Shown here: one piece after another, positions 35,790-63,725 of the stretch
How positions within the stretch are numbered: the stretch's first letter is position 1
Layout of the letters: every line of letters begins with the position of its first letter
DNA from: Pseudomonadota bacterium
GTDB taxonomy: Bacteria; Pseudomonadota; Alphaproteobacteria; Rhodobacterales; Rhodobacteraceae
DNA length: 64,000 bases
Reading direction: 5' to 3'
Assembly (NCBI GenBank): GCA_038745585.1
Contig: JBCDLH010000004.1
Coordinates: forward strand, 28,521 to 92,520
Notes under the pieces: model-generated
Databases searched by the model: none
What the model saw: the letters and a program-made list of their open reading frames with translations, nothing else
What the model was told of the DNA's origin: nothing
Made by a program: the position numbers and the translations under genes

Positions 35790-35805
35790 TGGTGCCCAGG
35801 AGAGG
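35790..35805. repeat. attL: 16-bp direct repeat TGGTGCCCAGGAGAGG
   Basis: Identical to 63639-63654, the 3' end of tRNA-Leu. Similarity continues with mismatches for about 7 more bp (CGAA shared). Confidence 0.85.
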
Positions 35806-35966: not shown

Positions 35967-37175
35967 GTGCCGAGACCGAGGAACAAGCTGTCGAATGTAA
36001 AGGTCCAGAAGGCTGGTCCTGGCAAGTACAGCGACGGCGCGGGCCTATGGCTCTTCAAGACGCCTGAAGGAAACGCGAAGTGGGTGCTGCGGTACACCAT
36101 CCATGGACGCCGCCGTGAGATGGGCCTCGGGGCGCTCGGTGACGTCACCTTGAAAGCTGCGCGTGAGGCTGCTGATAGGTGGCGCCCGCTGGTGGCGGCG
36201 GGCAAAGATCCCATCAAGGAGCGCGAGAAAGAGCGCCGCCAGCTTTTGCGTGTCGACAATTCGCTCGCTGCAGTCGCCGAAGACGCCTTCACCGCGCGAC
36301 AAGCTCAACTCAAAGACGATGGCAAGGCCGGTCGATGGTTTTCACCGCTCCGGCTCCATGTCCTGCCTAAGCTTGGCAGGGTGCCGGTCGAAGATATCGA
36401 TCAGCAAGATATCCGAACGACCATCGCACCCCTGTGGCACACAAAGGCGGACACTGCCCGCAAGGCGCTGGACCGGCTCAACATTGTGATGCGCCACGGT
36501 GCTGCGCTCGGGCTGGACGTAGACCTCCAAGCTGTTGCTAAGGCGAAAGCCCTTCTCGGGAAGAGCCGCCATGAAGCCCAACACATCCCGGCTATGGCGT
36601 GGCAAGAGGTGCCGAGCTTCTATGCAACCCTCGCGGAGCCGACGGTCACTCACCTAGCGCTTCGCCTACTCATTCTGACGGGGGTGCGATCCCGCCCACT
36701 CCGGTTTCTTCGCGTAGATCAAATCAATGGCGATGTTTGGACCATTCCCGCTGAGCTGATGAAGGGCGCTAAGGGCAAGACGTCCGACTTCAGGGTGCCG
36801 CTATCAATCGAAGCGCAGAAGGCCGTCGAGTTGGCGATGTCACATAGCCGCGACGGCTACCTGTTCCCAAGCGTGCGGAAGGGCGTAATCAGCGATGCGA
36901 CCATGGCACGGTTGATGGAGCGTCGTGGGATGGAAGCGCGCCCACACGGCTTTCGATCCAGCTTGCGAACCTGGCTCGCTGAGGCGACGGACGCGCCATA
37001 CGAGGTTGCTGAAACTGTCCTCGCGCACACCGTTGGGAGCTCAGTCCAGCGCGCTTACAGCAGGACTGATTATCTCGAACAGCGCCTGGCGTTGATGGAA
37101 AGATGGGGCCGTTTCGTTGCGGCAGAAAAAAGCGCGGAGGTTCTGACCTTTGAACAAGCCAGAACAATTGTTTGA
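35967..37175 (+). CDS. int: tyrosine recombinase, P4-type integrase (DUF4102 arm-binding N-terminus)
   Basis: LSNVKVQKAGPGKYSDGAGLWLFKTPEGNAKWVLRY; catalytic region LLILTGVRSRP, RPHGFRSSLRTW, VLAHTVGSSVQRAYSRTDY. Confidence 0.9.
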   Translation: MPRPRNKLSNVKVQKAGPGKYSDGAGLWLFKTPEGNAKWVLRYTIHGRRREMGLGALGDVTLKAAREAADRWRPLVAAGKDPIKEREKERRQLLRVDNSLAAVAEDAFTARQAQLKDDGKAGRWFSPLRLHVLPKLGRVPVEDIDQQDIRTTIAPLWHTKADTARKALDRLNIVMRHGAALGLDVDLQAVAKAKALLGKSRHEAQHIPAMAWQEVPSFYATLAEPTVTHLALRLLILTGVRSRPLRFLRVDQINGDVWTIPAELMKGAKGKTSDFRVPLSIEAQKAVELAMSHSRDGYLFPSVRKGVISDATMARLMERRGMEARPHGFRSSLRTWLAEATDAPYEVAETVLAHTVGSSVQRAYSRTDYLEQRLALMERWGRFVAAEKSAEVLTFEQARTIV

Positions 37176-41307: not shown

Positions 41308-41492
41308 GGTTACCGATCAGGGGCAAAGTTACGGATCGGTTACCGATTGGGAGAGGCAATCGGTTACCTCCAAGACACTGACACAAAACAATAAAGACCT
41401 CGGGTTACCGATGGTTACCGATTTTTGGGGGATATACGCATACGCGCGCACGCATAAGGGGGAATGCGAAGTAACGGTAACCATCGGTAACC
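41308..41492. repeat. iteron-like array of GGTTACCGAT (candidate replication origin)
   Basis: Direct copies at 41308-41317, 41327-41336 (2 mismatches), 41338-41347, 41362-41368 (7-mer core), 41403-41412 and 41413-41422. Inverted copies (ATCGGTAACC) at 41473-41482 (1 mismatch) and 41483-41492. An A+T-rich spacer ACACAAAACAATAAAGA lies at about 41381-41398. Confidence 0.7.
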
Positions 41493-42740: not shown

Positions 42741-44687
42741 ATGACCCTTCTCCACGATCACCGATTGCAGGGCGTTCACCCCACCCTCGGATCAATTCTA
42801 TCGGCTGCGGCGGCGAGCTACGGGCGACCCGTGGGCATCTCGGAGGGCCTGCGTGACAGAGACCGGCAAGCCAAGCTGGTTCAGCAAGGCAAGTCGAGAA
42901 CGATGAACAGTCGCCACCTCACGGGTCGCGCAGCGGACATTCACCTCCTCGGCCCGGACGGCTCCGCAAATTGGGACTTTCCGGCCTATGAGAGCTTTTG
43001 GACCAACCACGTCCAACCCATCGCGGCCGAGCGCGGCGTGCCGATCACCTGGGGCGGTAATTGGAAGTCACTCCGCGACGGGGTGCATTTCGAACTCGGC
43101 CCGGATTACGACGCCGGATGGCGTTCCCCTCTCATCGGCAAGGCTGCGAACGGCACGCTCGCGGGCGGCCTGTCCATCACCCCAACGCAGGAGCAAGACA
43201 CCATGCAGCAAGGTCTTCTCGGAATGCTCACACAGCAAGAGCCCCCTCAGCGGCCCCAAGGCCTCCTTGGCCAAGTGCTCGCGCAATCCCACGGCCAGGG
43301 CGGCGGTGGTGGCCCTTGGGCCGAGACGGGCAGCGCGGGCGACAACGCAATACAAGGCGGATTGACCATGATACCACCAAGGCGACAAACCCCTGCGGCA
43401 ACAACAGCGCCAATGCAATACGACAGTCCGCGTGGGCTGCTAGGCATGATGTTTCCAAACATGTCTGCCGAGACGCGAGACACTATCCGAATGGGGATGG
43501 CCGGGCTCGGCGGCCTAAGCGTAGTCGGTCCCAATACCGCCGTGCAGCAGGGCGTTTTGCAACGTCGTGCTGATTATCGCGCAGCAAAAGAGCGGGACGG
43601 GCAGCGCCAGGCGAAGACTCAGCAGCGCAATCAAACGTTGGAATGGATTGCAGACCAGGCGCGGCAGAACCCGGCCTATGCCGAACTGTATGAAGCTGCG
43701 GCGGCGGGGGTCATCAGCCCCGGGGAGGCATTCAACACCGTCTATCAGATGAAGAGGGAGCAGGGGCAGCCCGTGCGCGGGATCAACATCGGCGGGCGGC
43801 TGGTCAACCCGCAGACCGGTGCGGTCATGGCCGACTTCTCCGAAGGCGACAGCCCCTCGCCCTACACTCAGGCGGGCAAGCTTGCGGCGGATTTGCGGGC
43901 CGGTCTCATTGACGAGAGCCAGTACCGCGCAGGGCTCGCCCGCATGGATGACAGCGCGCCGTCTTCGGCAGAGGCCGAGATTGGGCGGATCATGGAGACC
44001 GTGAACCCGAACACGCAGCGCCCATTCACACGGGAGGAGGCGATCCAAGTCGCGGACCTCTCCACGGTCAGCCGCGATCCGGTGACGGGCGAGGCGCAGA
44101 TCCTCAACCGGGCCTCGGGCAGGCCGATGGCATCGCCAGCACCGCAGACCCCGCCCGCGCTGCCTCCGCCCTCACCCTCGCCCGAACGGTCCCCGGCAGA
44201 GTTCGGCAACGTCGCGGGAGCCCTGGGCGCGCGTGGGGTGGCGGCGAATACGGTCAACACCATCGGCGACACGCTCGGCCTCGGGCTGGCCTTCCCTTGC
44301 GCCGAACAGGCCGAAAGCGCACTGCGCAACCTGTCGACGCAAACTATGCTCACGCTCTCCGGCGAATGGGCGGGGCGCCCGTCCAACCTCACGCGCGAGA
44401 GGATCGAGCAACTGACGGTGCGCCCGAACGAGCTCAAGACCGGTCAGGGTGGCGCGCTCATCAAACTGCGCGATATGCGCAGGCTCATCGAGAACGCCAT
44501 CTCGGCCTCGGAGGGGGTGCAAGCGGGCCGGTACAGCCCAACGCAGAAGACCCAGGCCCAGCAGCGCGTCACGGCCTTGTCGAACCTCTTGCAGCAATAC
44601 AACGGCGTCATCGCCAATCTGGAAGGCAGTGCCGGGAATGGCGGCGGCCAGACATCGAGCGGCGTCCGGTGGAGTGTCGAGCCATGA
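42741..44687 (+). CDS. M15-family peptidoglycan peptidase domain fused to a long Gly/Gln-rich and helical region (virion-associated lysin-like)
   Basis: The N-terminus has SRHLTGRAADIHL and GGNWKSLRDGVHFEL (VanY/M15 zinc-peptidase motifs). Repeated GLLGM/GLLGQ motifs and coiled regions follow. 648 aa. Confidence 0.75.
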   Translation: MTLLHDHRLQGVHPTLGSILSAAAASYGRPVGISEGLRDRDRQAKLVQQGKSRTMNSRHLTGRAADIHLLGPDGSANWDFPAYESFWTNHVQPIAAERGVPITWGGNWKSLRDGVHFELGPDYDAGWRSPLIGKAANGTLAGGLSITPTQEQDTMQQGLLGMLTQQEPPQRPQGLLGQVLAQSHGQGGGGGPWAETGSAGDNAIQGGLTMIPPRRQTPAATTAPMQYDSPRGLLGMMFPNMSAETRDTIRMGMAGLGGLSVVGPNTAVQQGVLQRRADYRAAKERDGQRQAKTQQRNQTLEWIADQARQNPAYAELYEAAAAGVISPGEAFNTVYQMKREQGQPVRGINIGGRLVNPQTGAVMADFSEGDSPSPYTQAGKLAADLRAGLIDESQYRAGLARMDDSAPSSAEAEIGRIMETVNPNTQRPFTREEAIQVADLSTVSRDPVTGEAQILNRASGRPMASPAPQTPPALPPPSPSPERSPAEFGNVAGALGARGVAANTVNTIGDTLGLGLAFPCAEQAESALRNLSTQTMLTLSGEWAGRPSNLTRERIEQLTVRPNELKTGQGGALIKLRDMRRLIENAISASEGVQAGRYSPTQKTQAQQRVTALSNLLQQYNGVIANLEGSAGNGGGQTSSGVRWSVEP

Positions 44688-47254
44688 GCCAAGTCACGCT
44701 GAACATCGAAGGCCAGAAGGTCAAAGTCGACCCGTCGTTTCTGCAGCTCTCCCCGGAACAGCAGGAGGCTACGGTCGAAGAGATTGCCCGCAGCATCGGC
44801 GCCCAGCCACAGCAGAGCGGTGGCCTCATGGGCCAAGTCAATCAGGGCATCGCCGAAAGCGTCGGAGGCGTCGTGGACGTCCTCAACCCGTTCGACACGC
44901 CCGCTGTGAGCCAGGCCCTCGGCATGGGCGACCGGCTCACGACCGGATCGGCTGTCTCAGGCCTAGAGCGCGGCATGGACGCCGCAGGCATCGCCCGAGC
45001 CCAAGGTGCCCCCCAGACGGGCGCTCAGAGCTTCGCACGGGGGCTGGGACAGGCCGCAGGGGCCGCTCCCGTCGCTGGGATGGGGGCACAGGCCCTTAGC
45101 GGCGCGAGCGGGCTCCTGGGCCGGGTCATGGGCGATGCAAGCCGCACCCTCAATTCCGGGGGCGGTCTGATGTCCGAACTCCTCGCCGGTGGGGCGGCCC
45201 GTGCCTCTCAGGACGCGGCAACCCGCGCAGGAGCCCCAGATTGGGCCGCACAGAGCGCAGGTCTCCTCGGGGGCATGGCGACGGCGGCAGTGCCTTACGT
45301 GGCCTCACGGACGCCTACAGCGCTCGGAGCGCGCCAATTGGGACGGGCGGTCCAAACGGCGGCGATGCCCTACACCCGCTCAGGGGCGCAGGAGGTGGCG
45401 CGTCAGCGGGTCCAGGAGCTTGCGGGCGGGCCGGAGCGTGCTGCCGAGCTTGCGGGCCGGATCAGCAACAGCACCGAGCTTGGCCTGACCCCCGCACAGC
45501 AGACCGCAGATCCGAACATGCTGGCGCTGGAGCAGACTGCCGCGCGTCAGGAGCCGAACCTGCGGGACCGGCTGACCCGGCGCGCGGAGACGGGCCAGGG
45601 CCTCGCAGTGGAGCGGATGCCTGGCGCGGATGGCAGCGTGCAAGAGGCGCAGAGCTTCTTTGACCGTCGCCAGCAGGAGGCACTCCAAAGCATCCAGGCC
45701 CGTGTGGACCGGGCGACCAACGGTGCCCTGCGCCCTACGTCGCGCAACACGCCGATGGAGAACAGCGAGAAGGTGGCGCGCCAGCTTCGGGCGGCGGAGA
45801 CGCAGGCGGATGCGGAAGAAGCGGCGCTTTGGGCTGCGGTGCCCAAGGGAGCGCACGTTGGCACCGAGAGCCTTAGGCGCACGGCAACTGAGCTGATCCA
45901 GGCCACCCCACGGGCGCAGCGGGGCGATATCCCGCGCGTCGTGACAAACCTTCTCGGCGACGGCGCCAACAATGGGTTTGCTGAGTTCGAAACCGTCTCA
46001 GAGGTGCACGGGCTTTACTCCGAGATGCGCCGCGTGGCGCGCTCTGCAATGGCGGGTAATGACCAGAACCGGAACTTGGCGCGTATCGCGAACACCATCG
46101 CGGACGCAGCTCTGGACGACCTTGGCGCGGGGGCTGGCGCGACGGAGATTGGTCGGACCATCGACGCGGCGCGTGCTTTCTCGGCAGCCAAGCACCAGAC
46201 CTTCGACCAGGGCACGGTTGGGCGGCTCCTGAAGCGCACGCTCGACGGCGACGAGGCTATCCCGCCTCAGCTCACCCTAGAGCGCACGATGGGACGCGGC
46301 GGCGCACGCGGGGCCGTAGCTTACGACGACATCACCACAGCGGCGGACACCAACCCAGTGCAGAACGCGGCCGAGGATTACGTCATCGGTCTCTTTGACC
46401 GCGCCTCGTTCAAGCCGGACGGATCGCACAATCCGAACGGCGCCATGCGGTTCCTCAGCGAGAACCGGGAAATGCTGTCTCGCATGCCCTACCTTAGAGA
46501 GACGCTCAACGAGAGCTTGCGTACCCAGCAACTGGCGGGCTCACTGGCGGCGCGGGGCACCCGCGTCGCAGCGGATGCGCAAAACCCAAGCCGCTCGGCC
46601 ATAGCGGCGTTCACGCAAGCAGCACCGGAGAGCGCGGTTGACCAGGTATTTGCGGCGCGGAGGCCTTCAACGGAAGCGGTTCGTCTCGCGCGCACTGCCC
46701 GCAAAGACCAGACGGGGCAGGCTCTTCGTGGTCTTAAGTCTGCTTTTTCTGCTCACCTGATCCGGCAGAGCACGACCCCGAGCGGCTTGTCCGGCCAGCG
46801 AATGCAGACCTTCCTGCGCTCCCCGGAAAACCGATTGGCCATGACGACCATGCTCTCCGGCCCGGAAGTGCGACGCATGGATGCCATTGCAGGCGAGCTG
46901 ACGAAGCTGGAAGCGGCCCAGGTCGCAGCCCCGGATATCGGCGGCCTCTCAAAGCGCTCGCCCAACCGGGTCCTAGAAATCGTCGCACGGGTTTATGCGG
47001 CTCGCTATGGCGCCCAAGCGGGCGGTGGCGGTGGTGCCTCTATCCAGACGGCCAACATGGCCTCAGGGCGCGCCAAGGAGCTGCTGGGCCGGCTCCAAAA
47101 CGACAAGGCCGAGCAGATGCTCATCGACGCCATCGAAGACCCAGAACTCTTCCGTACGCTCCTCACGGACCCCGGTAAGATCACGCCGGGCACAGAGACC
47201 TACAACCGCCTGGCGCCGTACTTCACCGGTGCGCTGGCCGGGACAGGGGAGTGA
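44684..47254 (+). CDS. large hypothetical protein (856 aa; helical, Ala/Gly/Gln-rich)
   Basis: ATGA overlap with the upstream stop, starting MSQVTLNIEGQKVKV. The upstream extension of the 985-aa ORF lies inside the previous gene. No catalytic motif was recognised. Confidence 0.65.
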   Translation: MSQVTLNIEGQKVKVDPSFLQLSPEQQEATVEEIARSIGAQPQQSGGLMGQVNQGIAESVGGVVDVLNPFDTPAVSQALGMGDRLTTGSAVSGLERGMDAAGIARAQGAPQTGAQSFARGLGQAAGAAPVAGMGAQALSGASGLLGRVMGDASRTLNSGGGLMSELLAGGAARASQDAATRAGAPDWAAQSAGLLGGMATAAVPYVASRTPTALGARQLGRAVQTAAMPYTRSGAQEVARQRVQELAGGPERAAELAGRISNSTELGLTPAQQTADPNMLALEQTAARQEPNLRDRLTRRAETGQGLAVERMPGADGSVQEAQSFFDRRQQEALQSIQARVDRATNGALRPTSRNTPMENSEKVARQLRAAETQADAEEAALWAAVPKGAHVGTESLRRTATELIQATPRAQRGDIPRVVTNLLGDGANNGFAEFETVSEVHGLYSEMRRVARSAMAGNDQNRNLARIANTIADAALDDLGAGAGATEIGRTIDAARAFSAAKHQTFDQGTVGRLLKRTLDGDEAIPPQLTLERTMGRGGARGAVAYDDITTAADTNPVQNAAEDYVIGLFDRASFKPDGSHNPNGAMRFLSENREMLSRMPYLRETLNESLRTQQLAGSLAARGTRVAADAQNPSRSAIAAFTQAAPESAVDQVFAARRPSTEAVRLARTARKDQTGQALRGLKSAFSAHLIRQSTTPSGLSGQRMQTFLRSPENRLAMTTMLSGPEVRRMDAIAGELTKLEAAQVAAPDIGGLSKRSPNRVLEIVARVYAARYGAQAGGGGGASIQTANMASGRAKELLGRLQNDKAEQMLIDAIEDPELFRTLLTDPGKITPGTETYNRLAPYFTGALAGTGE

Positions 47255-48308: not shown

Positions 48309-49217
48309 TCAACGTTTAATCTCGTCGGTGGTGCTGCGCGTTGACCTGTTCTGCAAACGCCTTGCCCAGGTCGCATTACGGTCTGGTTCCTTGCGTATCG
48401 GACAGCCGCCGCAATAGTCGCGTTCGGGAGCCTGATAGACAAGGCAGCAGGTTCGGCGCCGCCAAGTTGTGCCCTCAAGCTCGCCGAGCCGCTTCACGAT
48501 CATGTCTCCGGTCCGCCCTTGCCCTTCAATCTGGTCTCGGCTGGCGTTGAAGAAGGCGACGGCAGTAGCAGCAACATCTCTCCATGCGACCGTGGTATTA
48601 GCGTCGATAAATGTCAGCGCCATCCCGATCTGCGACGCGACCGCACCCTTCGCCAGAAGTGGCCCCAACCGATAGAGGACGCGCAACCGGTCGTGCAGTG
48701 GCAGAAGGTGTTGAATCAGGATCGATTCGACAGCTTGCGACGTTAGGTCAGGAACCGCGCGGACGTTAGCGTCCGGCAATGTGAAGCTTCGATCAGAAAA
48801 GACGACCGGGTCTCGAAGGTACACTTCGATCGGGCGACCTTCGGCATCGAACCGAAGCAGGAGGTTGGAGGCAGACATATCGGGTACCAGTCCCGATTGC
48901 ACCCACAACGCCAAGCCCGGCGCCGCGATCCGATAGGCATAGGCTTGCAGGAACAAGGTCGCGGCGACCCTCGGCTCGCTCGTTCCCAGACCTTTGCCAC
49001 GAGCGGCAACGAGGCCCTGCAACGCATCGTCGCCGATGCCATCGGCTGACTGCAGGTCGCCGTCGCTGAAGCCAGCGATGCTGAGCCGGAAGCGTTCGCC
49101 GATTGCCCCTGCATCCGCCACGGCTTGTGCGAAGCTAGCCGGCGCTGCTCGCTCCGACAAAGCTCTGTCAGCCGGGATTTCATCGGCAGCGGGTGTGATC
49201 ACAAGCTCGTCGATCAT
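48309..49217 (-). CDS. FhuF-like ferric-chelate reductase family protein with C-terminal 2Fe-2S motif
   Basis: The C-terminal RRRTCCLVYQAPERDYCGGCPI is exactly C-C-x10-C-x2-C, the FhuF cluster signature. The start overlaps the ATPase gene stop by 4 nt. Confidence 0.75.
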   Translation of the reverse strand: MIDELVITPAADEIPADRALSERAAPASFAQAVADAGAIGERFRLSIAGFSDGDLQSADGIGDDALQGLVAARGKGLGTSEPRVAATLFLQAYAYRIAAPGLALWVQSGLVPDMSASNLLLRFDAEGRPIEVYLRDPVVFSDRSFTLPDANVRAVPDLTSQAVESILIQHLLPLHDRLRVLYRLGPLLAKGAVASQIGMALTFIDANTTVAWRDVAATAVAFFNASRDQIEGQGRTGDMIVKRLGELEGTTWRRRTCCLVYQAPERDYCGGCPIRKEPDRNATWARRLQNRSTRSTTDEIKR

Positions 49218-50803
49218 GCGACGTCTGCCGCAGTGCGGTTGGGCATGTCTGAACTATCGGTGAGGACACCATCCTTCATGTGCAGCACGCGGTCGCAGAG
49301 ACTGCCAAGCATGCGTGTGTCGTGACTGACAACGATCAGGCCGGTGCCAGCATCGACCGCCTCACGAAGCAGCACGATGATTCCCGCCCCCGCTGAGACG
49401 TCCAGGGCCGAGGTCGGTTCATCGGCGATCAGGACGCGTGGTTTGTTGATAAGCGCACGGGCGATGGCGACACGCTGGCGCTGACCGCCTGAAAGGTTAT
49501 GAGGCCTTGCCGATGGATCGAGGTTTGAAAGCCCAACATGATCAAGTGCACCAATCGCGAGCTTGAGACGCTCAGCCTTCGAAGGGCGTGAAGGCCTGTG
49601 GCGCGCCATGAGTGGCTCTGTGATCGACCGCCAGATTGGCCAGTATGCATCCAAAGATGCGGTGGGGTCCTGAAGGATCGGCATAATTTCTCCAGGCCCT
49701 GGATAATCACGACCGTCGGCATATCGGACGCGCCCGGCCGTCGGCGGCTCGCGCATGCCCAGGACCCTTAGGAAGCTGGACTTTCCGCATCCAGACGGCC
49801 CGGCAATTCCGATGGCTTCGCCAGCATGGAGGGTCAAGCTTGCGCTTCGGACCGCCTGAACCGCGCCATAGTCTCGGCGCACCGCTTCAGCGCAAAGCAG
49901 TGGGTCGGATTGCATAGGCCGCTCCCGCGTTTGCTTCGGCGCCGCCGCCACGGGAAGCTCGGACAACAACTTGGCACGCGGAACGAAGCTTGCATCCGCA
50001 TCCGGTGCTCGCGGGTCAGGAGCCGTACCGGGGATTGGCCTGGGTAGTGTCTGTCCGTCGGGCGTCGCCTCGATTAAAGCACGGGTGTAAGCATGCTGCG
50101 GCGCGCGCAGCACCCGGTCACTCTCACCGATCTCCACGATGCGACCGGCGTAGAAGACCGCAACCCTCTCGGTGTGAGCGGCGACTAGGCCAAGGTCATG
50201 GCTGACCAACACGAGGCTACCGCTGCGGCGCGCCAGATCGGCTAGGATTGTATCGGCAAGGTCGGCGTCAAGCGCAGAGGTCGGCTCGTCCGCGATGACG
50301 ATTTGTGGATCGAGCGCAAGGGCGCCCGCAATGGCTGCCCGTTGGAGCATGCCCCCGCTCCAATCGGAAGGTCGTCGGCCCAGCCGCTCCCCCGGATCGG
50401 GCACATCCATCCGCTCCAATAGCGTGGTCATATCGGAGTGGCTCGGGCGGAAGCCGTGGGCGCGCCACGCTTCAGCCATCGACGTGCTAACCTTCAAAAC
50501 TGGCGTGAAACCCGCATAGGGGTCCTGGGCGACATAGCCCGCGACACGACCGCGAAGACGTCTCAGCTCCGAACGAGGCGCACGCTGGGGATCGATGCCA
50601 CCGACGCAAATACGGCCATGTGTCGTCGCACCGTCAGGCAGGAGTCCCGTAAGCGCGAGGGTTAGTGTCGACTTACCGCAGCCGGATTCTCCGACAATTG
50701 CAACGCGCTCGCCACGTTCGACGACCAGATCGATCCCTCGGAGAGCCCTTGCGCCATTGCCATATTGAACCTCCAGCCCATCAATCTCAATCAGCGCGGT
50801 CAT
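49214..50803 (-). CDS. ABC transporter ATP-binding protein, fused double NBD (Dpp/Opp/Nik D-F type)
   Basis: Two Walker A motifs (GESGCGKST, GPSGCGKSS) and two signature regions (WSGGMLQR, LSGGQRQR). The start is set at ATG 50803, an ATGA overlap with the permease stop. Confidence 0.9.
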   Translation of the reverse strand: MTALIEIDGLEVQYGNGARALRGIDLVVERGERVAIVGESGCGKSTLTLALTGLLPDGATTHGRICVGGIDPQRAPRSELRRLRGRVAGYVAQDPYAGFTPVLKVSTSMAEAWRAHGFRPSHSDMTTLLERMDVPDPGERLGRRPSDWSGGMLQRAAIAGALALDPQIVIADEPTSALDADLADTILADLARRSGSLVLVSHDLGLVAAHTERVAVFYAGRIVEIGESDRVLRAPQHAYTRALIEATPDGQTLPRPIPGTAPDPRAPDADASFVPRAKLLSELPVAAAPKQTRERPMQSDPLLCAEAVRRDYGAVQAVRSASLTLHAGEAIGIAGPSGCGKSSFLRVLGMREPPTAGRVRYADGRDYPGPGEIMPILQDPTASLDAYWPIWRSITEPLMARHRPSRPSKAERLKLAIGALDHVGLSNLDPSARPHNLSGGQRQRVAIARALINKPRVLIADEPTSALDVSAGAGIIVLLREAVDAGTGLIVVSHDTRMLGSLCDRVLHMKDGVLTDSSDMPNRTAADVA

Positions 50804-51645
50804 GCCTTGCTTCCATCCCGCAAAGCGTCGGCACAAAGGTTGGTCGCAGCGATGGTCCACAGGATGCACCCGGCCGGTGCGATGACCATCCAGGGCGCCT
50901 GAAACATGTAAATGCGCGCTTCGGCGAGTTGTGCACCCCACTCGGCGGAACCTGGCTCAGCCCCAAGTCCTAAGAACGACAGGCCGGCAAAACTCATAAC
51001 CACCCCACCGACCCGCAGGGTTGCCACGACAGACAGCTGAGCCACGAGGTGTGGAAGAATGTGTCCCGCGACAATCCGCGCCGTCGAAACTCCCGCAAGC
51101 TGGTCGGCCCATATGTCGGGTCGGTCTCGGGATTGGACGACATGGATGCGCGCAAGGCGACCGAGATAGGCCCAAGAAGCAACGGTCAGTGCGAGAAGCA
51201 GGTTGCCAAACCCCGGCCCAAGGATACCGAGAACGGCTAGCGCGATGACGAGATCAGGAATGGCGAGAACTACATCGATCAATCGCATCAGGATCGTGTC
51301 GACGATCCGACCAGAGAGCCCCGCGATCAGTCCAACAGCGATGCTTATGACCAAGGCGCCACCAACGATGAGGAACGTAGCGAGTAGCGTGGTTCTGGCA
51401 CCGGCGGCGACCCGCGCAAGGACATCGCGGCCAAGGTGGTCTGTGCCAAACGGATGAGCGATGCTCGGAGGTTGCAAACGCTCTAGCGGGTTCAGCTGAT
51501 AGGCTCCACCTTCGGTAAAGCTAGGCCCAAACACTGCAAGGAGACCGAGAACAACCAGAAGACCAAGCCCGGCTCGGCCTTGCGGACTTAAGAACAGCCC
51601 TTGAGCTTGCCCCCGGCGACCGACTGAAGATTCGACAGCACTCAT
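50800..51645 (-). CDS. ABC transporter permease (DppC/NikC-like)
   Basis: 281 aa with 6 TM-like segments. Its position and size match the second permease of family-5 peptide/nickel importers. Stops and starts overlap on both sides. Confidence 0.85.
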   Translation of the reverse strand: MSAVESSVGRRGQAQGLFLSPQGRAGLGLLVVLGLLAVFGPSFTEGGAYQLNPLERLQPPSIAHPFGTDHLGRDVLARVAAGARTTLLATFLIVGGALVISIAVGLIAGLSGRIVDTILMRLIDVVLAIPDLVIALAVLGILGPGFGNLLLALTVASWAYLGRLARIHVVQSRDRPDIWADQLAGVSTARIVAGHILPHLVAQLSVVATLRVGGVVMSFAGLSFLGLGAEPGSAEWGAQLAEARIYMFQAPWMVIAPAGCILWTIAATNLCADALRDGSKA

Positions 51646-52595
51646 CGCACGCGGTCCGGATCGGCGTCGGGATCAATGGCTGCCGCCGCAATGTCGGCCG
51701 CCAGGCTGCTCGCCACATAGACCAGCGTCGCGTAAATCGCGTAGCCTTGGATGACAGGCATATCCCGCGCACTCACGGCTTGCACCGCATAGGAACCAAG
51801 ACCTGGCCAGGTGAACACCGCCTCAATCACCGGCGCACCCGACAGGATTGCGCCGATGCCCAAACCGACCGCGTGAAGAAATGACGGCGCTGCGACCGGC
51901 AGTGCATGACGCGTCAGAATCCGCCCCTCGGTCAAACCTCGGGCACGAAGCGTCAGGGCGAAGCGTTTGCCTTGCGCGACGATCAGATCGGAACGAAGAA
52001 GCCGCGACCAAGTCGCGAAGACACCGAGTGAAAGAGCCAAAGCCGGCAACCAGACGCCCGCCCACGTACCATCACCAATGACCGCTCCCCACTCGCCTCG
52101 AACCACGACGAACTCGAGGATTATGAAGCCTATTAAGAAAGCTGGAAGTGCTGCTGTGAGGAAGGCGAACACTCTGAGAAGACTGTCTGGCCATTGATTG
52201 CGCCACCTGGCTGCAATCAGAGCTGCAGCGACAGAAATCAGGAGCGCGATTGCCAGCGTTGCGACCGTCAGTCGGACAGTTGCGGGCAAACGCTGTTGCA
52301 TCTCTTGAATCACTGGACGACCGGACTGATAGGAAATGCCCAGATCGCCGCGCAAGACGCCGCTGGCCCAGATCGAGTACTGTTCTGGCAAGGGTCGGTC
52401 GAGACCGTAGAGTTCGGTGACTTCCGCAACCTCTTCTGCGGTGGGGTCCAAGACGCCTTGGGCCTGTAAGATGCGGAACGCTGGATCACCCGGAGCGAGG
52501 GGGATGAGCATCCAAATGAGGATGCTCGCCCCAAACGCCGCGGCTAGCGCGCCAGCCGCCCTTCGCAGGATTTGGGCAAAAGAGCCGCGAGCCAT
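51642..52595 (-). CDS. ABC transporter permease (DppB/NikB-like)
   Basis: ILRRAAGALAAAFGASILIWMLIPLAPGDPA is the typical N-terminus of DppB-type permeases. The start is set at Met 52595, 18 nt after the SBP stop. Confidence 0.85.
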   Translation of the reverse strand: MARGSFAQILRRAAGALAAAFGASILIWMLIPLAPGDPAFRILQAQGVLDPTAEEVAEVTELYGLDRPLPEQYSIWASGVLRGDLGISYQSGRPVIQEMQQRLPATVRLTVATLAIALLISVAAALIAARWRNQWPDSLLRVFAFLTAALPAFLIGFIILEFVVVRGEWGAVIGDGTWAGVWLPALALSLGVFATWSRLLRSDLIVAQGKRFALTLRARGLTEGRILTRHALPVAAPSFLHAVGLGIGAILSGAPVIEAVFTWPGLGSYAVQAVSARDMPVIQGYAIYATLVYVASSLAADIAAAAIDPDADPDRVR

Positions 52596-52612
52596 GTCGG
52601 TCACTCGGGCTT

Positions 52613-54175
52613 TTACGGGTTCGTCGGCACCGTATCCCAGCGGAAGTGGCGGAACCAATTCGACAGCTGGTAGTCCTGGTAAGTCTCGTCGACGACCAGA
52701 GATGGCCGCTGCATCGTGACGGCGATCAGATAGGCCCGCTCTTCGACCATAAGCCGCTGAAGCTGCTGAAAGAGTTCCAACTTACGATCCGGATCGAACT
52801 CCGAGATGAGATCAGCCGCCAACTGGTCGAGTTCGGGATCGGCCGTCCGGCCATAGTTCTGGACCGAGTCCGACAGGTGGTAGCGGGTCAGTTGTGTCTC
52901 ATAGCTCCCCGACCATTGCGACAGGGTGCCATTTGAAACGACAGCCGCGTTCCAGTCATCGGTTTCGAGTGCAATGTCGCCGACCCGTTCGACCTGCTGT
53001 ACCTCAATGTCGATACCGATCGGGGCGAGTTGCTGTTCCACGGCAAGCGCCATGGTCACATGGTCCGACCGCCCGCCTGTGGCAAGCAGTACGATCCGAA
53101 GGTCCTCGCCGTCACGGTCGCGGATACCGTCTCCGTCGCTGTCGACCCAGCCGGCTTCGTCCAAGAGCGCTGCAGCCGCCGACTGATCGGTTATCTGGTT
53201 CGCCAGAGAGCCCGCAAACTCTGCCGGATAAAGACCAGTTGCCGTGCTCATATATCCGGCCATAAAGTCTTCGGCGATTTCGCGATAGTCGATCGCAAGG
53301 CTCAGGGCACGACGAACCGGAATCTCATCCAAGGGCGGCACGGCCTGGTTCATTTCGATCCGGATCGAGCTTTCCCAATCCGCTTGCAGGAAGAACGCCT
53401 GCGGGTCGTTTTCAAGCAGAGGACCGTAATCTACTGACATCTGCCGCGCCCAATGCGCTTCGCCGGCGCGTACCGCTGTCAGGCGGGCTTGCGCATCAGG
53501 AATGTTGAGAACGCGCACGCCCGGCAGCGGCGGCGTGCCTTGCCAGTAGTTCTCGTTCCTGGTGAGCACTAATTCAGTGTCGGAGTAGCTTTCAACGACG
53601 AATGGTCCGGTCATGTAGCCGGATGCCGCAAACGCGTCTTCGTCGCCATTTGCCGCTCGTACGGCATCAAGATCATAGACGACGAAGGCATTATACTGGA
53701 CAAGCTTGCGTGGAACGACGGAGTCAGGTTCGGGCGTGGTGATGACGACCGTGTAGTCGCCTGTAACCTCGGCTTGCAGATCCGGCAGGAGCGCGCCAGC
53801 GAGCGTCGAGTTGGCTGACTGATACTCGAGAAACGCCGCCAACCGCTCCGCATTCAGCGTTGTGCCGTTCTGGAAGGAAATGCCTTCGCGCAAGACAAGT
53901 TCCCACTGGGTTGGCGCGATGTTGACGAGCGACTCGAGCAGCCATGGCACCGGTTCGCCTTCCGGGGTCATTGTCATCAGCGTCTCGCCAACGCCCCATC
54001 TGAGTTGCCAGGCCTGGTTCATTGCCGTCGGATCGAGTGTGTTGATCGCACGATGCGACGCAATGACGAGAGGTTCGGTAATCTGTTGTGCGGCTGTAAG
54101 ACTGACGGTGCCCAAAAGGAGTGGGACAGTGGTGATCGCAGCGGCGATGCTGCGCGAGAGCACTTTGCGGGACAT
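52613..54175 (-). CDS. ABC transporter substrate-binding protein, family 5 (peptide/nickel/metal-chelate type)
   Basis: 520 aa with a signal peptide (AAAITTVPLLLGTVSLTAAQQ). LVLTRNENYWQG is a typical SBP_bac_5 motif. Confidence 0.85.
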   Translation of the reverse strand: MSRKVLSRSIAAAITTVPLLLGTVSLTAAQQITEPLVIASHRAINTLDPTAMNQAWQLRWGVGETLMTMTPEGEPVPWLLESLVNIAPTQWELVLREGISFQNGTTLNAERLAAFLEYQSANSTLAGALLPDLQAEVTGDYTVVITTPEPDSVVPRKLVQYNAFVVYDLDAVRAANGDEDAFAASGYMTGPFVVESYSDTELVLTRNENYWQGTPPLPGVRVLNIPDAQARLTAVRAGEAHWARQMSVDYGPLLENDPQAFFLQADWESSIRIEMNQAVPPLDEIPVRRALSLAIDYREIAEDFMAGYMSTATGLYPAEFAGSLANQITDQSAAAALLDEAGWVDSDGDGIRDRDGEDLRIVLLATGGRSDHVTMALAVEQQLAPIGIDIEVQQVERVGDIALETDDWNAAVVSNGTLSQWSGSYETQLTRYHLSDSVQNYGRTADPELDQLAADLISEFDPDRKLELFQQLQRLMVEERAYLIAVTMQRPSLVVDETYQDYQLSNWFRHFRWDTVPTNP

Positions 54176-54409
54176 TCAGATTTTCCATGGCGAGAGTCTG
54201 GGTGCGGGACAACCAGTTTGCCTGATCGTGCCGATCGGATCGGGAACCCAACATCGAAGGATCTGAAGCGAAGGTGCTAACGGACGCACGACCAGCGGAA
54301 TGCGGTCTTGCATTCCAGCGGGCCAAGAATGAACGAGGGATGAGTTCATCATCCACCCGGAAAGGGCATGCGCCATAGTTCCCCCTTCGGCCCTCCGCCG
54401 GAAGTCGGT

Positions 54410-54600
54410 GATCTCGAGGCGAAGGCCGGTCTCCTGGCTCACGGTTAAACAGCGCCCGCCTTCCAGACCGGTGGCCCGTGGCATTCTGGGCGCTGCCATT
54501 CCGCTTACAGTTGCGGGGGCAGCTGCAGATTAAGGCACATAGCCCGCACTGCATTCCCGTTTCACTTCCGAGGGGGAAGCACCTTCAACGATCTGAGGGT
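54410..54600 (-). promoter_or_regulatory. cobalamin (B12) riboswitch
   Basis: The minus-strand RNA reads GGTGCTTCCCCCTCGGAAGTGAAACGGGAATGCAGTGCGGG...AATCTGCAGCTGCCCCCGCAACTGTAAGCGG...GCCACGGGCCACCGGTCTGGAAGGCGGGC...GAGCCAGGAGACCGGCC. This includes the AACGGGAA core, GCCCCCGCAACTGTAA, GCCAC.GG...GGGAAGGC and the B12 box AGCCAGGAGACCGGCC. It lies about 235 nt upstream of the SBP gene. Confidence 0.85.
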
Positions 54601-63638: not shown

Positions 63639-63654
63639 TGGTGCCCAGGAGAGG
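63639..63654. repeat. attR: 16-bp direct repeat TGGTGCCCAGGAGAGG (inside the tRNA-Leu 3' end)
   Basis: Identical to 35790-35805. Confidence 0.85.
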
Positions 63655-63725
63655 ACTCGAACCTCCACGTCCATACAGACACTAGCACCTGAAGCTAGCG
63701 CGTCTACCAGTTCCGCCACCTGGGC
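63639..63725 (-). tRNA. tRNA-Leu (anticodon CAG), class II with long variable arm, CCA encoded
   Basis: The reverse complement folds by hand. Acceptor GCCCAGG/CCTGGGC; anticodon stem CTAGC/GCTAG with loop TTCAGGT; long variable arm; T-arm GGAGG-TTCGAGT-CCTCT; then ACCA. Confidence 0.9.

Follow-up and report, generated by a model that had tools for sequence, protein, structure and literature searches.

A cobalamin riboswitch-controlled Nik-like importer with a translationally coupled FhuF-fold 2Fe-2S protein on an alphaproteobacterial tRNA-Leu island, and its possible role in cobalt uptake

The window analysed here is a stretch of 64,000 nucleotides (nt) from a Rhodobacteraceae bacterium (GenBank assembly GCA_038745585.1, contig JBCDLH010000004.1, positions 28,521 to 92,520). 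On its minus strand it carries a cobalamin (B12) riboswitch, followed by an operon for a Nik-like ATP-binding cassette (ABC) importer whose last gene encodes a 2Fe-2S protein related to FhuF. The riboswitch, the gene set, and the FhuF fold and cluster motif of the last product were all recovered, and the linkage of riboswitch, importer and FhuF-like gene is conserved, recurring in other bacteria, mostly marine. We give about an even chance to the reading that the system, repressed by B12, takes up chelated cobalt with high affinity, possibly as inert Co(III) complexes, and that the 2Fe-2S protein releases this cargo reductively in the cytoplasm. The features of the operon, in the direction of transcription, are as follows.

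54407-54599, minus strand: cobalamin riboswitch aptamer (RF00174), full length, by Rfam covariance-model match
54176-54406, minus strand: leader or expression platform, between the aptamer and the ATG of the binding-protein gene
52613-54175, minus strand: periplasmic substrate-binding protein (SBP), family 5, Nik-like 'type A'; SBP_bac_5, 212 bits
51642-52595, minus strand: permease 1 (NikB-like); BPD_transp_1 and BPD_transp_1_N
50800-51645, minus strand: permease 2 (NikC-like); ATGA overlap with permease 1
49214-50803, minus strand: fused double ABC ATPase (NikD-NikE-like); two ABC_tran stretches and oligo_HPY
48309-49217, minus strand: FhuF-fold [2Fe-2S] protein; ATGA overlap with the ATPase gene

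The riboswitch, the importer and the FhuF-fold protein

An earlier examination of the DNA from its letters alone (the sequence-only reading) had recognised a B12 riboswitch ahead of the operon by hand. The Rfam covariance model RF00174 confirmed it with a score of 115.9 bits, against a gathering score of 31.5 (E 2.3e-28), and the match spans the whole model (positions 1-189 of 189), taking in the two strings read by hand, GCCCCCGCAACTGTAA and AGCCAGGAGACCGGCC. The aptamer ends 232 nt upstream of the binding-protein ATG at 54175. Apart from the riboswitch, a tRNA-Leu(CAG) gene was the sole Rfam match in the 64-kb window.

Five co-directional genes follow the aptamer, for the SBP, the two permeases, the double ATPase and the FhuF-like protein in this order. 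The sequence-only reading had described them as an operon with overlapping starts and stops. This holds for three junctions, each of which is an ATGA; the binding-protein and permease 1 genes, however, are separated by a 17-nt spacer. The open reading frame (ORF) of permease 1 spans 51642-52658, and its probable ATG at 52595 lies 17 nt past the TAA stop of the binding-protein gene. The ATPase ORF spans 49214-50941, and its probable ATG at 50803 forms the ATGA overlap with permease 2. The N-terminus of the binding protein is signal-like. The NikABCDE-type architecture is complete, with a family-5 SBP, two BPD_transp_1 permeases, two ABC ATPase domains and oligo_HPY.

Comparison with NCBIfam models revealed the affinities of the subunits. 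The best model for the binding protein was Opp5A_nikA, with 202 bits (cutoff 600), and a second NikA model gave 102 bits (cutoff 393). Permease 1 scored 278 bits with the Opp2B nickel permease model and 261 bits with NikB (cutoff 447), compared with 130 for DppB and 119 for OppB. For permease 2, Opp2C gave 247 bits, the nickel/cobalt model Opp1C 225, NikC 223 (cutoff 358) and CntC 184. The ATPase matched NikD with 269 bits (cutoff 319) and NikE with 234 bits (cutoff 333). No transporter subunit reached the NCBIfam equivalog cutoff for NikA, NikB, NikC, NikD or NikE. Taken over both permeases, the E. coli DppB/C and OppB/C models gave 119-154 bits, versus 225-278 bits for the nickel or nickel/cobalt permease models.

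A profile made from the window binding protein and its 11 closest relatives was ranked against the chains of the PDB. At the top stood 3t66, a nickel-binding protein of Bacillus, with 275 bits, followed by the NikA chains of S. aureus (201 bits), E. coli (197) and Brucella (196). CntA scored 142 bits, OppA 113, DppA 103, and heme-binding protein A 97-117. These similarities assign binding protein and permeases to the nickel/metallophore branch of family 5 and not to its peptide branch, and the binding protein is best described as Nik-like, not as a NikA equivalog. The earlier assignment to a family-5 importer for peptides, nickel or metal chelates thus stands, with the nickel/metallophore systems as its nearest relatives.

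The last gene of the operon encodes a protein of 302 residues, which matched both Pfam models of the family above their cutoffs, FhuF with 32.2 bits (cutoff 25.2) and FhuF_C with 27.6 bits (cutoff 20.5). The exact cluster motif that the sequence-only reading had picked out is present as C257-C258-x10-C269-x2-C272, and CC-x10-C-x2-C is invariant in 14 of the 14 sequences of the clade described below. C-C-x10-C-x2-C is the family-defining motif of the FSR family (bioRxiv 10.1101/2023.07.04.547673). An AlphaFold model of the protein, built from the 14-sequence alignment, had a pLDDT of 91.4 and a pTM of 0.91. In Foldseek the best PDB match of the model was E. coli FhuF, 7qp5 (E 1.5e-6, TM 0.60/0.73, about 265 columns), and the palm domains of NIS siderophore synthetases came next. 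The same pattern of matches, to an NIS-synthetase palm-like domain, has been reported for FhuF itself (bioRxiv 10.1101/2023.07.04.547673). As modelled, then, the protein has the two-domain FhuF fold, consisting of a siderophore-synthetase-palm-like domain and a cluster loop. It is not a FhuF equivalog, scoring 33.1 bits with TIGR03951 / PRK10647 against a cutoff of 63.85; the other clade members gave 29-47 bits with TIGR03951.

We also inspected the leader between aptamer and ATG for signals of metal control. A palindrome, GAATGA-N16-TCATCC at 54327-54354, agrees with the E. coli-type NikR operator at 10 of 12 positions and is the sole match of such quality in the 64-kb window. Perfect NikR boxes were found solely in the separate nikR-nikA intergenic region of the related Labrenzia locus L001/L025. 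The palindrome probably forms, as RNA, a hairpin in the expression platform, and a dual control by metal and B12 may be considered beside it. There was no Fur-box or Irr-box pattern match in the leader or the promoter region, and no nikR among the annotated ORFs of the window; the riboswitch occupies the place of NikR control.

Related loci and the FhuF-like clade

How widely the FhuF-like protein occurs was assessed in several collections. A word-indexed search of 5.8 billion proteins returned 13 relatives only, with 41-55% identity and the four cysteines invariant. In an exhaustive search of 1.84 billion cluster representatives with a hidden Markov model (HMM), 8 clusters scored at least 370 bits and the next protein 159 bits; after this break, about 1100 ordinary FhuF-like proteins came at 120 bits or less. 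By these scores the FhuF-like proteins of the B12-linked loci form a small, sharply separated clade. A pattern-based scan of 185,579 species-representative genomes found 3 close loci, in Amaricoccus macauensis and two alphaproteobacterial metagenome-assembled genomes, and 1 distant locus. The pattern-based metagenome scan contributed 2 loci only; either clade members are rare or pattern scans of this kind lack sensitivity. In the plasmid collection the clade gene is present on megaplasmids, in three strains of Labrenzia and in Ponticoccus alexandrii, where it is labelled just '(2Fe-2S)-binding protein' or 'IucA/IucC family C-terminal-domain containing protein'. Labrenzia, Ponticoccus and Amaricoccus are among the carriers in culture.

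Gene context was read in 11 dereplicated lineages, namely the window, L003, L001/L025, L006/L007, L009, L011, L012, L013, L018/L026, L023 and L008. The FhuF-like gene lies in or beside an ABC importer in all 11. By sequence similarity the partner importers are of three kinds, with two divergent Nik-like types of family-5 binding protein (SBP5), or with a FecCD/FhuD-like system. SBP5 type A is carried by the window and L003, and type B by L001/L025 (Labrenzia), L006/L007, L009, L011 and L012 (Amaricoccus); the SBP5 importer of L013 was not assigned to a type. Peripla_BP_2/FecCD/ABC importers are present in L018/L026 (Ponticoccus), L023 and L008. The gene order of the window (SBP5, permeases, ATPases, FhuF-like) is kept in L001/L025, L006/L007, L009, L011 and L012, and in L013 a DUF1636 gene is added at the front of the operon. 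In L003, the nearest relative of the window, the riboswitch is followed by genes for PepSY_TM, a TonB-type outer-membrane protein and the FhuF-like protein, and then by the SBP5 ABC genes. A TonB-dependent receptor is encoded at L008 and L023.

RF00174 was detected in 9 of the 11 loci, directly ahead of the FhuF-containing operon in 8 of them, and it is placed as in the window in L001, L003, L009, L011, L012, L013, L018, L025 and L026. The binding proteins of the window and L003 are 64% identical, and those of types A and B only 25-30%, compared with 44-55% for the FhuF-like proteins across the two types. Reductase and riboswitch thus stay constant and the carrier is interchangeable. This is our strongest ground for thinking that the target of the FhuF-like protein is the cargo and not one transporter or another. 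The sequence-only reading had made its case depend on whether the FhuF-like gene is conserved together with the transporter behind a B12 riboswitch, and in independent lineages it is.

Several observations were made in the course of reading these loci. At L003 (4980-15835) the riboswitch controls a longer operon, in which the outer-membrane protein has 1082 residues and is of the CarboxypepD_reg/beta-barrel kind; the opposite strand upstream encodes a barrel fragment of a TonB-dependent receptor, a protein weakly like MotA/ExbB, and DUF2149. All the Peripla_BP_2/FecCD loci have a gene for a luciferase-like (LLM class) oxidoreductase near the FhuF-like gene, and in L023 it comes after a riboswitch-controlled TonB-dependent receptor. 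No NCBIfam model matched this oxidoreductase above cutoff; it could act on the chelator. In Labrenzia and Ponticoccus a second cobalamin riboswitch drives nrdHIEF, for class Ib ribonucleotide reductase, beside the importer, and the two together make a small megaplasmid cluster of B12-starvation genes. The positions are listed below.

L008 4640-5398; L018 5973-7031; L026 12937-13995; L023 4083-5045: LLM-class flavin oxidoreductase
L025 16863-17069; L026 8176-8369; L001 10541-10747; L018 1210-1403: second cobalamin riboswitch (nrdHIEF)

A locus on a plasmid of Roseinatronobacter sp. S2 (L029, 6898-12848) has a B12 riboswitch core and B12 box, detected as exact core and box pattern matches only. 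They are followed by a gene whose product, of 256 residues, ends in a thioredoxin-like 2Fe-2S ferredoxin domain, and then by a Nik-like SBP5 ABC importer, whose binding protein is 34% identical to that of the window; there is no FhuF-like gene at this locus. With another Fe-S partner in this position, an Fe-S redox partner seems to be a recurring need of B12-controlled Nik-like importers. The idea that the ferredoxin-domain protein corresponds to the DUF1636 protein of L013 was dropped, as BLASTP found no similarity between them.

Two further loci place FhuF-like genes in other surroundings; the neighbourhood in a Streptomyces outgroup was uninformative. In L022 (2-3305) a more distant FhuF-like protein, P0020, with 114 bits to the clade profile, is encoded by a gene that overlaps the stop of a CobT (DBI_PRT) gene, which in turn comes after a gene for a ChlD-like AAA_lid_2+VWA chelatase subunit. 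This arrangement suggests that cobalamin biosynthesis clusters have recruited FhuF-fold proteins more widely. At L004 (2685-11659), which could be a cluster for making and exporting a chelator, the genes that come after the FhuF-like one encode a chorismate-binding enzyme, a P450, two ABC exporters, an AMP-binding enzyme and an ABC_cobalt component.

Candidate cargo and alternative explanations

The operon combines traits of several known systems. NikABCDE homologues behind B12 riboswitches in Clostridium tetani and in Desulfitobacterium hafniense have been predicted to be cobalt-specific because the riboswitch precedes them (PMC2667541, citing Rodionov et al. 2006). They share with the window operon the cobalamin riboswitch and an importer of the peptide/nickel family with a family-5 SBP, two permeases and two ATPase domains. 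Unlike it, they come from Firmicutes, and the passages of PMC2667541 that deal with them mention no FhuF-like gene, whereas the window operon couples a FhuF-fold 2Fe-2S protein translationally to the transporter, and the two are conserved together. CbtJKL of Sinorhizobium meliloti is a riboswitch-controlled ABC importer that supplies cobalt (PMC7689651), and like the window operon it is an alphaproteobacterial importer under a B12 riboswitch. The Peripla_BP_2/FecCD loci with a FhuF-like gene (Ponticoccus, L023 and L008) have the transporter architecture of CbtJKL. CbtJKL, however, is of the BtuF/FecCD family, not Nik/Opp, and no reductase is mentioned with it in the relevant part of PMC7689651. 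A comparison of the Ponticoccus SBP with S. meliloti, in search of a link to CbtJ, was uninformative, the only match being 28% identical, in an unannotated stretch and with no riboswitch.

FhuF reduces Fe(III)-hydroxamates rapidly by means of its unusual C-C-x10-C-x2-C cluster (bioRxiv 10.1101/2023.07.04.547673). The window protein resembles E. coli FhuF (7qp5) in its modelled two-domain fold, in this motif, and as a putative cytoplasmic partner of a metal-chelate ABC importer. It differs in its low identity (18-19%), its longer N-terminus and its score below the TIGR03951 cutoff; and whereas E. coli FhuF is an iron-uptake protein, the gene of the window is under B12 riboswitch control and the clade goes with Nik-like or FecCD transporters that are linked to cobalt or cobalamin genes. 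Among importers, the Ni-(His)2 binder NikA of S. aureus and CntABCDF, a system for the uptake of staphylopine with Co, Ni or Zn, belong to the same family-5 branch of SBPs and permeases. The S. aureus Opp5A, Opp2B and Opp2C nickel components are the best NCBIfam models, with CntC, CntD and CntF also strong, and what these Nik/Cnt metallophore importers carry is a metal in complex with a chelator and not the free ion. Unlike in these systems, no opine or metallophore biosynthesis genes are present in the window. Nik/Cnt systems are under a metal-sensing repressor, the window operon under a riboswitch instead, and we know of no cytoplasmic Fe-S reductase in Nik/Cnt systems.

The sequence-only reading had not known the combination as a described system. 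This is partly so. The coupling to a FhuF-like protein looks undescribed: full-text searches returned no publication that links FhuF to B12 riboswitches, and the one review that names both does so in unrelated passages. Nik-type ABC systems behind B12 riboswitches, on the other hand, were already predicted cobalt transporters. What appears undescribed is the FSR-family clade tied to B12-controlled importers, while the idea of a riboswitch with a Nik-type cobalt importer is known.

The mechanism that we propose is as follows. Scarce adenosylcobalamin would let the riboswitch, if it behaves as an off-switch, permit expression of the operon. The Nik-like periplasmic protein would bind a cobalt-chelate complex, and the two permeases with the fused ATPase would carry it into the cytoplasm. 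There the translationally coupled FhuF-fold [2Fe-2S] protein would reduce the metal, most plausibly from inert Co(III) to labile Co(II), by analogy with the action of FhuF on Fe(III)-hydroxamates. The freed cobalt would then pass to cobaltochelatase and cobalamin synthesis.

Several contexts point to cobalt. Genes for cobW-like and CbiM proteins adjoin the L006/L007 operon, which has no riboswitch; the DUF1636 gene lies within the L013 operon and an ABC_cobalt gene in L004; and the distant FhuF-like relative directly follows the ChlD-like chelatase subunit and CobT. Both SBP5 types and the permeases appear to be of nickel/cobalt-chelate character. The Peripla_BP_2 SBPs gave 50-72 bits with the ferrichrome/ferrioxamine binder model versus 35-44 with BtuF (BtuF cutoff 234), all of these far under the cutoffs. 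In Labrenzia a separate nikABCDE operon, with nikR and a perfect NikR box, lies a few kilobases away, which argues that the B12-regulated paralogue is not the nickel system.

Other results weigh against chelated cobalt as the cargo. The binding protein stays far under every NCBIfam equivalog cutoff (202 versus 600 bits). In profile alignments to E. coli and B. suis NikA, residues that are non-basic and not conserved stand at the places of the E. coli NikA ligand residues Arg137 and His416; at about 25% identity these alignments are uncertain, and too divergent for the ligand or the specificity to be read from the sequence. Nor would a structural model name the ligand, since family-5 proteins all have a common fold. 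In the leader, the terminator scan found no intrinsic-terminator-like site from the aptamer to the ATG, and the leader folds no more stably than shuffled sequences do (z = -1.2). RF00174 was absent from L006/L007 and L008 even at E < 0.1. The variant loci contain TonB-dependent receptors and BtuF-related binding proteins, and corrinoid transporters, too, are commonly under B12 riboswitch control.

These last points lead to corrinoid salvage, in which cobalamin, cobinamide or another corrinoid would be imported and its Co(III) reduced to Co(II) by the FhuF-like protein, prior to adenosylation or remodelling. We consider it unlikely, with evidence on both sides. Uptake of the btuB and btuFCD type is typically under B12 riboswitches, and in L023, L018/L026 and L008 the FhuF-like gene occurs with riboswitch-controlled TonB-dependent receptors and Peripla_BP_2/FecCD transporters; the Peripla_BP_2 SBPs, however, match BtuF at only 35-44 bits and score higher with hydroxamate-siderophore binders. 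Family-5 SBPs can bind tetrapyrroles, and heme-binding protein A was among the PDB matches (97-117 bits), but the SBP profile and the permeases are nearest to nickel-chelate systems, not to heme or peptide ones. The distant FhuF-like relative adjoins CobT, a lower-ligand activation gene, whereas the cobW and CbiM neighbours elsewhere indicate a metal ion. The reduction of aquacobalamin to cob(II)alamin is easy and has no need of a dedicated low-potential Fe-S enzyme. Breakdown of a chelator would fit the recurrence of LLM oxidoreductase genes in the Peripla_BP_2-type loci.

It is also conceivable, though we hold it rather improbable, that during B12 starvation the importer supplies another metal, as a chelate of Fe, Mn or Ni, for B12-independent enzymes such as class Ib ribonucleotide reductase, and that the FhuF-like protein is a ferric-chelate reductase. 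The sole characterised activity of its family is the reduction of Fe(III)-hydroxamates, and riboswitch-controlled nrdHIEF lies directly beside the operon in Labrenzia (L001/L025) and Ponticoccus (L018/L026). No nrd genes, however, are near the operon in the window, L003, L009, L011, L012 or L013, and we know of no case in which a B12 riboswitch controls iron uptake. Fur-box and Irr-box matches are lacking in the leader and promoter region. The NikR-box-like palindrome (10/12) in the window leader could speak for nickel, but it is more simply an RNA hairpin of the expression platform, and Labrenzia has its own NikR-controlled nickel operon. Mere juxtaposition, an ordinary peptide or opine importer, a riboswitch and a stray FhuF-like gene having been thrown together on a mosaic island, seems to us highly improbable. 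The island is indeed a mosaic in which phage-like replication genes occur together with an endolysin-like gene and hypothetical genes, and every transporter subunit is under its NCBIfam equivalog cutoff. The arrangement with its ATGA-type coupling nevertheless recurs in at least 8 independent lineages, which contradicts chance adjacency, and three cultured genera carry it outside any such island. The protein identities of 44-74% argue against the loci being recent copies of a single mobile element.

Beyond the import of chelated cobalt by the window operon, we tentatively propose that the FhuF-like clade may mark a dedicated 'cobalt-siderophore' route to inert Co(III)-organic complexes during B12 shortage. 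Import would proceed by Nik-like or FhuD/FecCD-like ABC systems, sometimes with a TonB-dependent receptor, and would be followed by one-electron reduction by an FSR-family 2Fe-2S enzyme. Production of B12 is limited by the supply of cobalt, and many marine microbes and algae are limited by B12; to our knowledge no uptake pathway is known for the strongly complexed cobalt pool of seawater. Most of the dissolved cobalt there is tied up in very strong organic complexes, consistent with inert Co(III) chelates (PMC3369199). A B12 switch with a chelate importer and a siderophore-type reductase is how a pathway for complexed cobalt would be expected to look, and its occurrence in cultivable marine alphaproteobacteria (Labrenzia, Ponticoccus) makes it directly testable there. 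If such a route exists, it would be the first genetic handle on how marine bacteria gain access to strongly complexed cobalt, and would extend the FhuF/FSR siderophore-reductase family to a second metal beyond iron. It would also give a function to genes labelled '(2Fe-2S)-binding protein' or 'IucA/IucC family C-terminal-domain containing protein', and the location on a tRNA island and on megaplasmids would show that the trait can move between genomes.

The tRNA-Leu island and the remainder of the window

The operon lies between two copies of a 16-nt exact repeat, TGGTGCCCAGGAGAGG, which is the 3' terminus of tRNA-Leu. The borders and the integrase are as follows.

63639-63725, minus strand: tRNA-Leu(CAG); its 3' 16 nt (63639-63654) are one copy of the att-like direct repeat
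35790-35805, no strand assigned: distal copy of the 16-bp repeat; 20/23 nt when extended to 35812
35967-37175, plus strand: tyrosine integrase (Arm-DNA-bind_3, Phage_int_M, Phage_integrase), about 160 nt inside the distal repeat

Chance alone would produce a given 16-mer about 3e-5 times in 64 kb, so the repeat is not a chance one. Other mobile-element genes within the repeats encode a D5-type primase, a DUF5681 protein, a staphylococcal-nuclease-like protein and a DnaB_C-like protein, and a protein with an M15 endolysin-like N-terminus is also encoded there. Together these features speak for a predicted integrative element at 35790-63654, about 27.9 kb long, with the operon inside it. The sequence-only reading had placed the operon inside the tRNA-Leu repeats, and the exact repeat, the integrase and the phage-like genes agree with it; carriage on the island is true by position, and the operon may also be co-mobilised with it. 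Windows along the island have a G+C content (GC) of 0.57-0.69, the operon 0.60-0.62, and the whole window a mean of 0.60. No internal repeats that flank the operon were found within the island. Relatives are on megaplasmids or in variable regions, the Amaricoccus locus lying beside a Type ISP restriction gene, and their patchy distribution is consistent with horizontal spread.

Two stretches of the island stand apart from the operon. At 42741-47254 a gene for a 648-residue protein, with the M15 endolysin-like N-terminus and a long C-terminal part without family match, overlaps a 985-residue ORF without family match, in the GC-richest stretch of the window (0.69). Possibly one ORF of this pair is spurious; alternatively, the island could have a tail- or lysis-like module here. 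A perfect 18-nt inverted repeat, GGTTACCGATGGTTACCG / CGGTAACCATCGGTAACC, with arms 54 nt apart, lies at 41403-41492, immediately upstream of the DUF5681 gene, and may be an operator or an origin-like element.

Outside the island, window positions 1-35000 hold a surface-polysaccharide cluster with GT4 glycosyltransferases, a Wzz/GNVR tyrosine-kinase-type protein, a Wzy_C ligase/polymerase, an AT3-SGNH acyltransferase and a GDSL lipase with an Ig domain. Within this left half of the window GC drops in patches, to 0.49-0.56 at 12-19 kb and to 0.52 at 28-30 kb.

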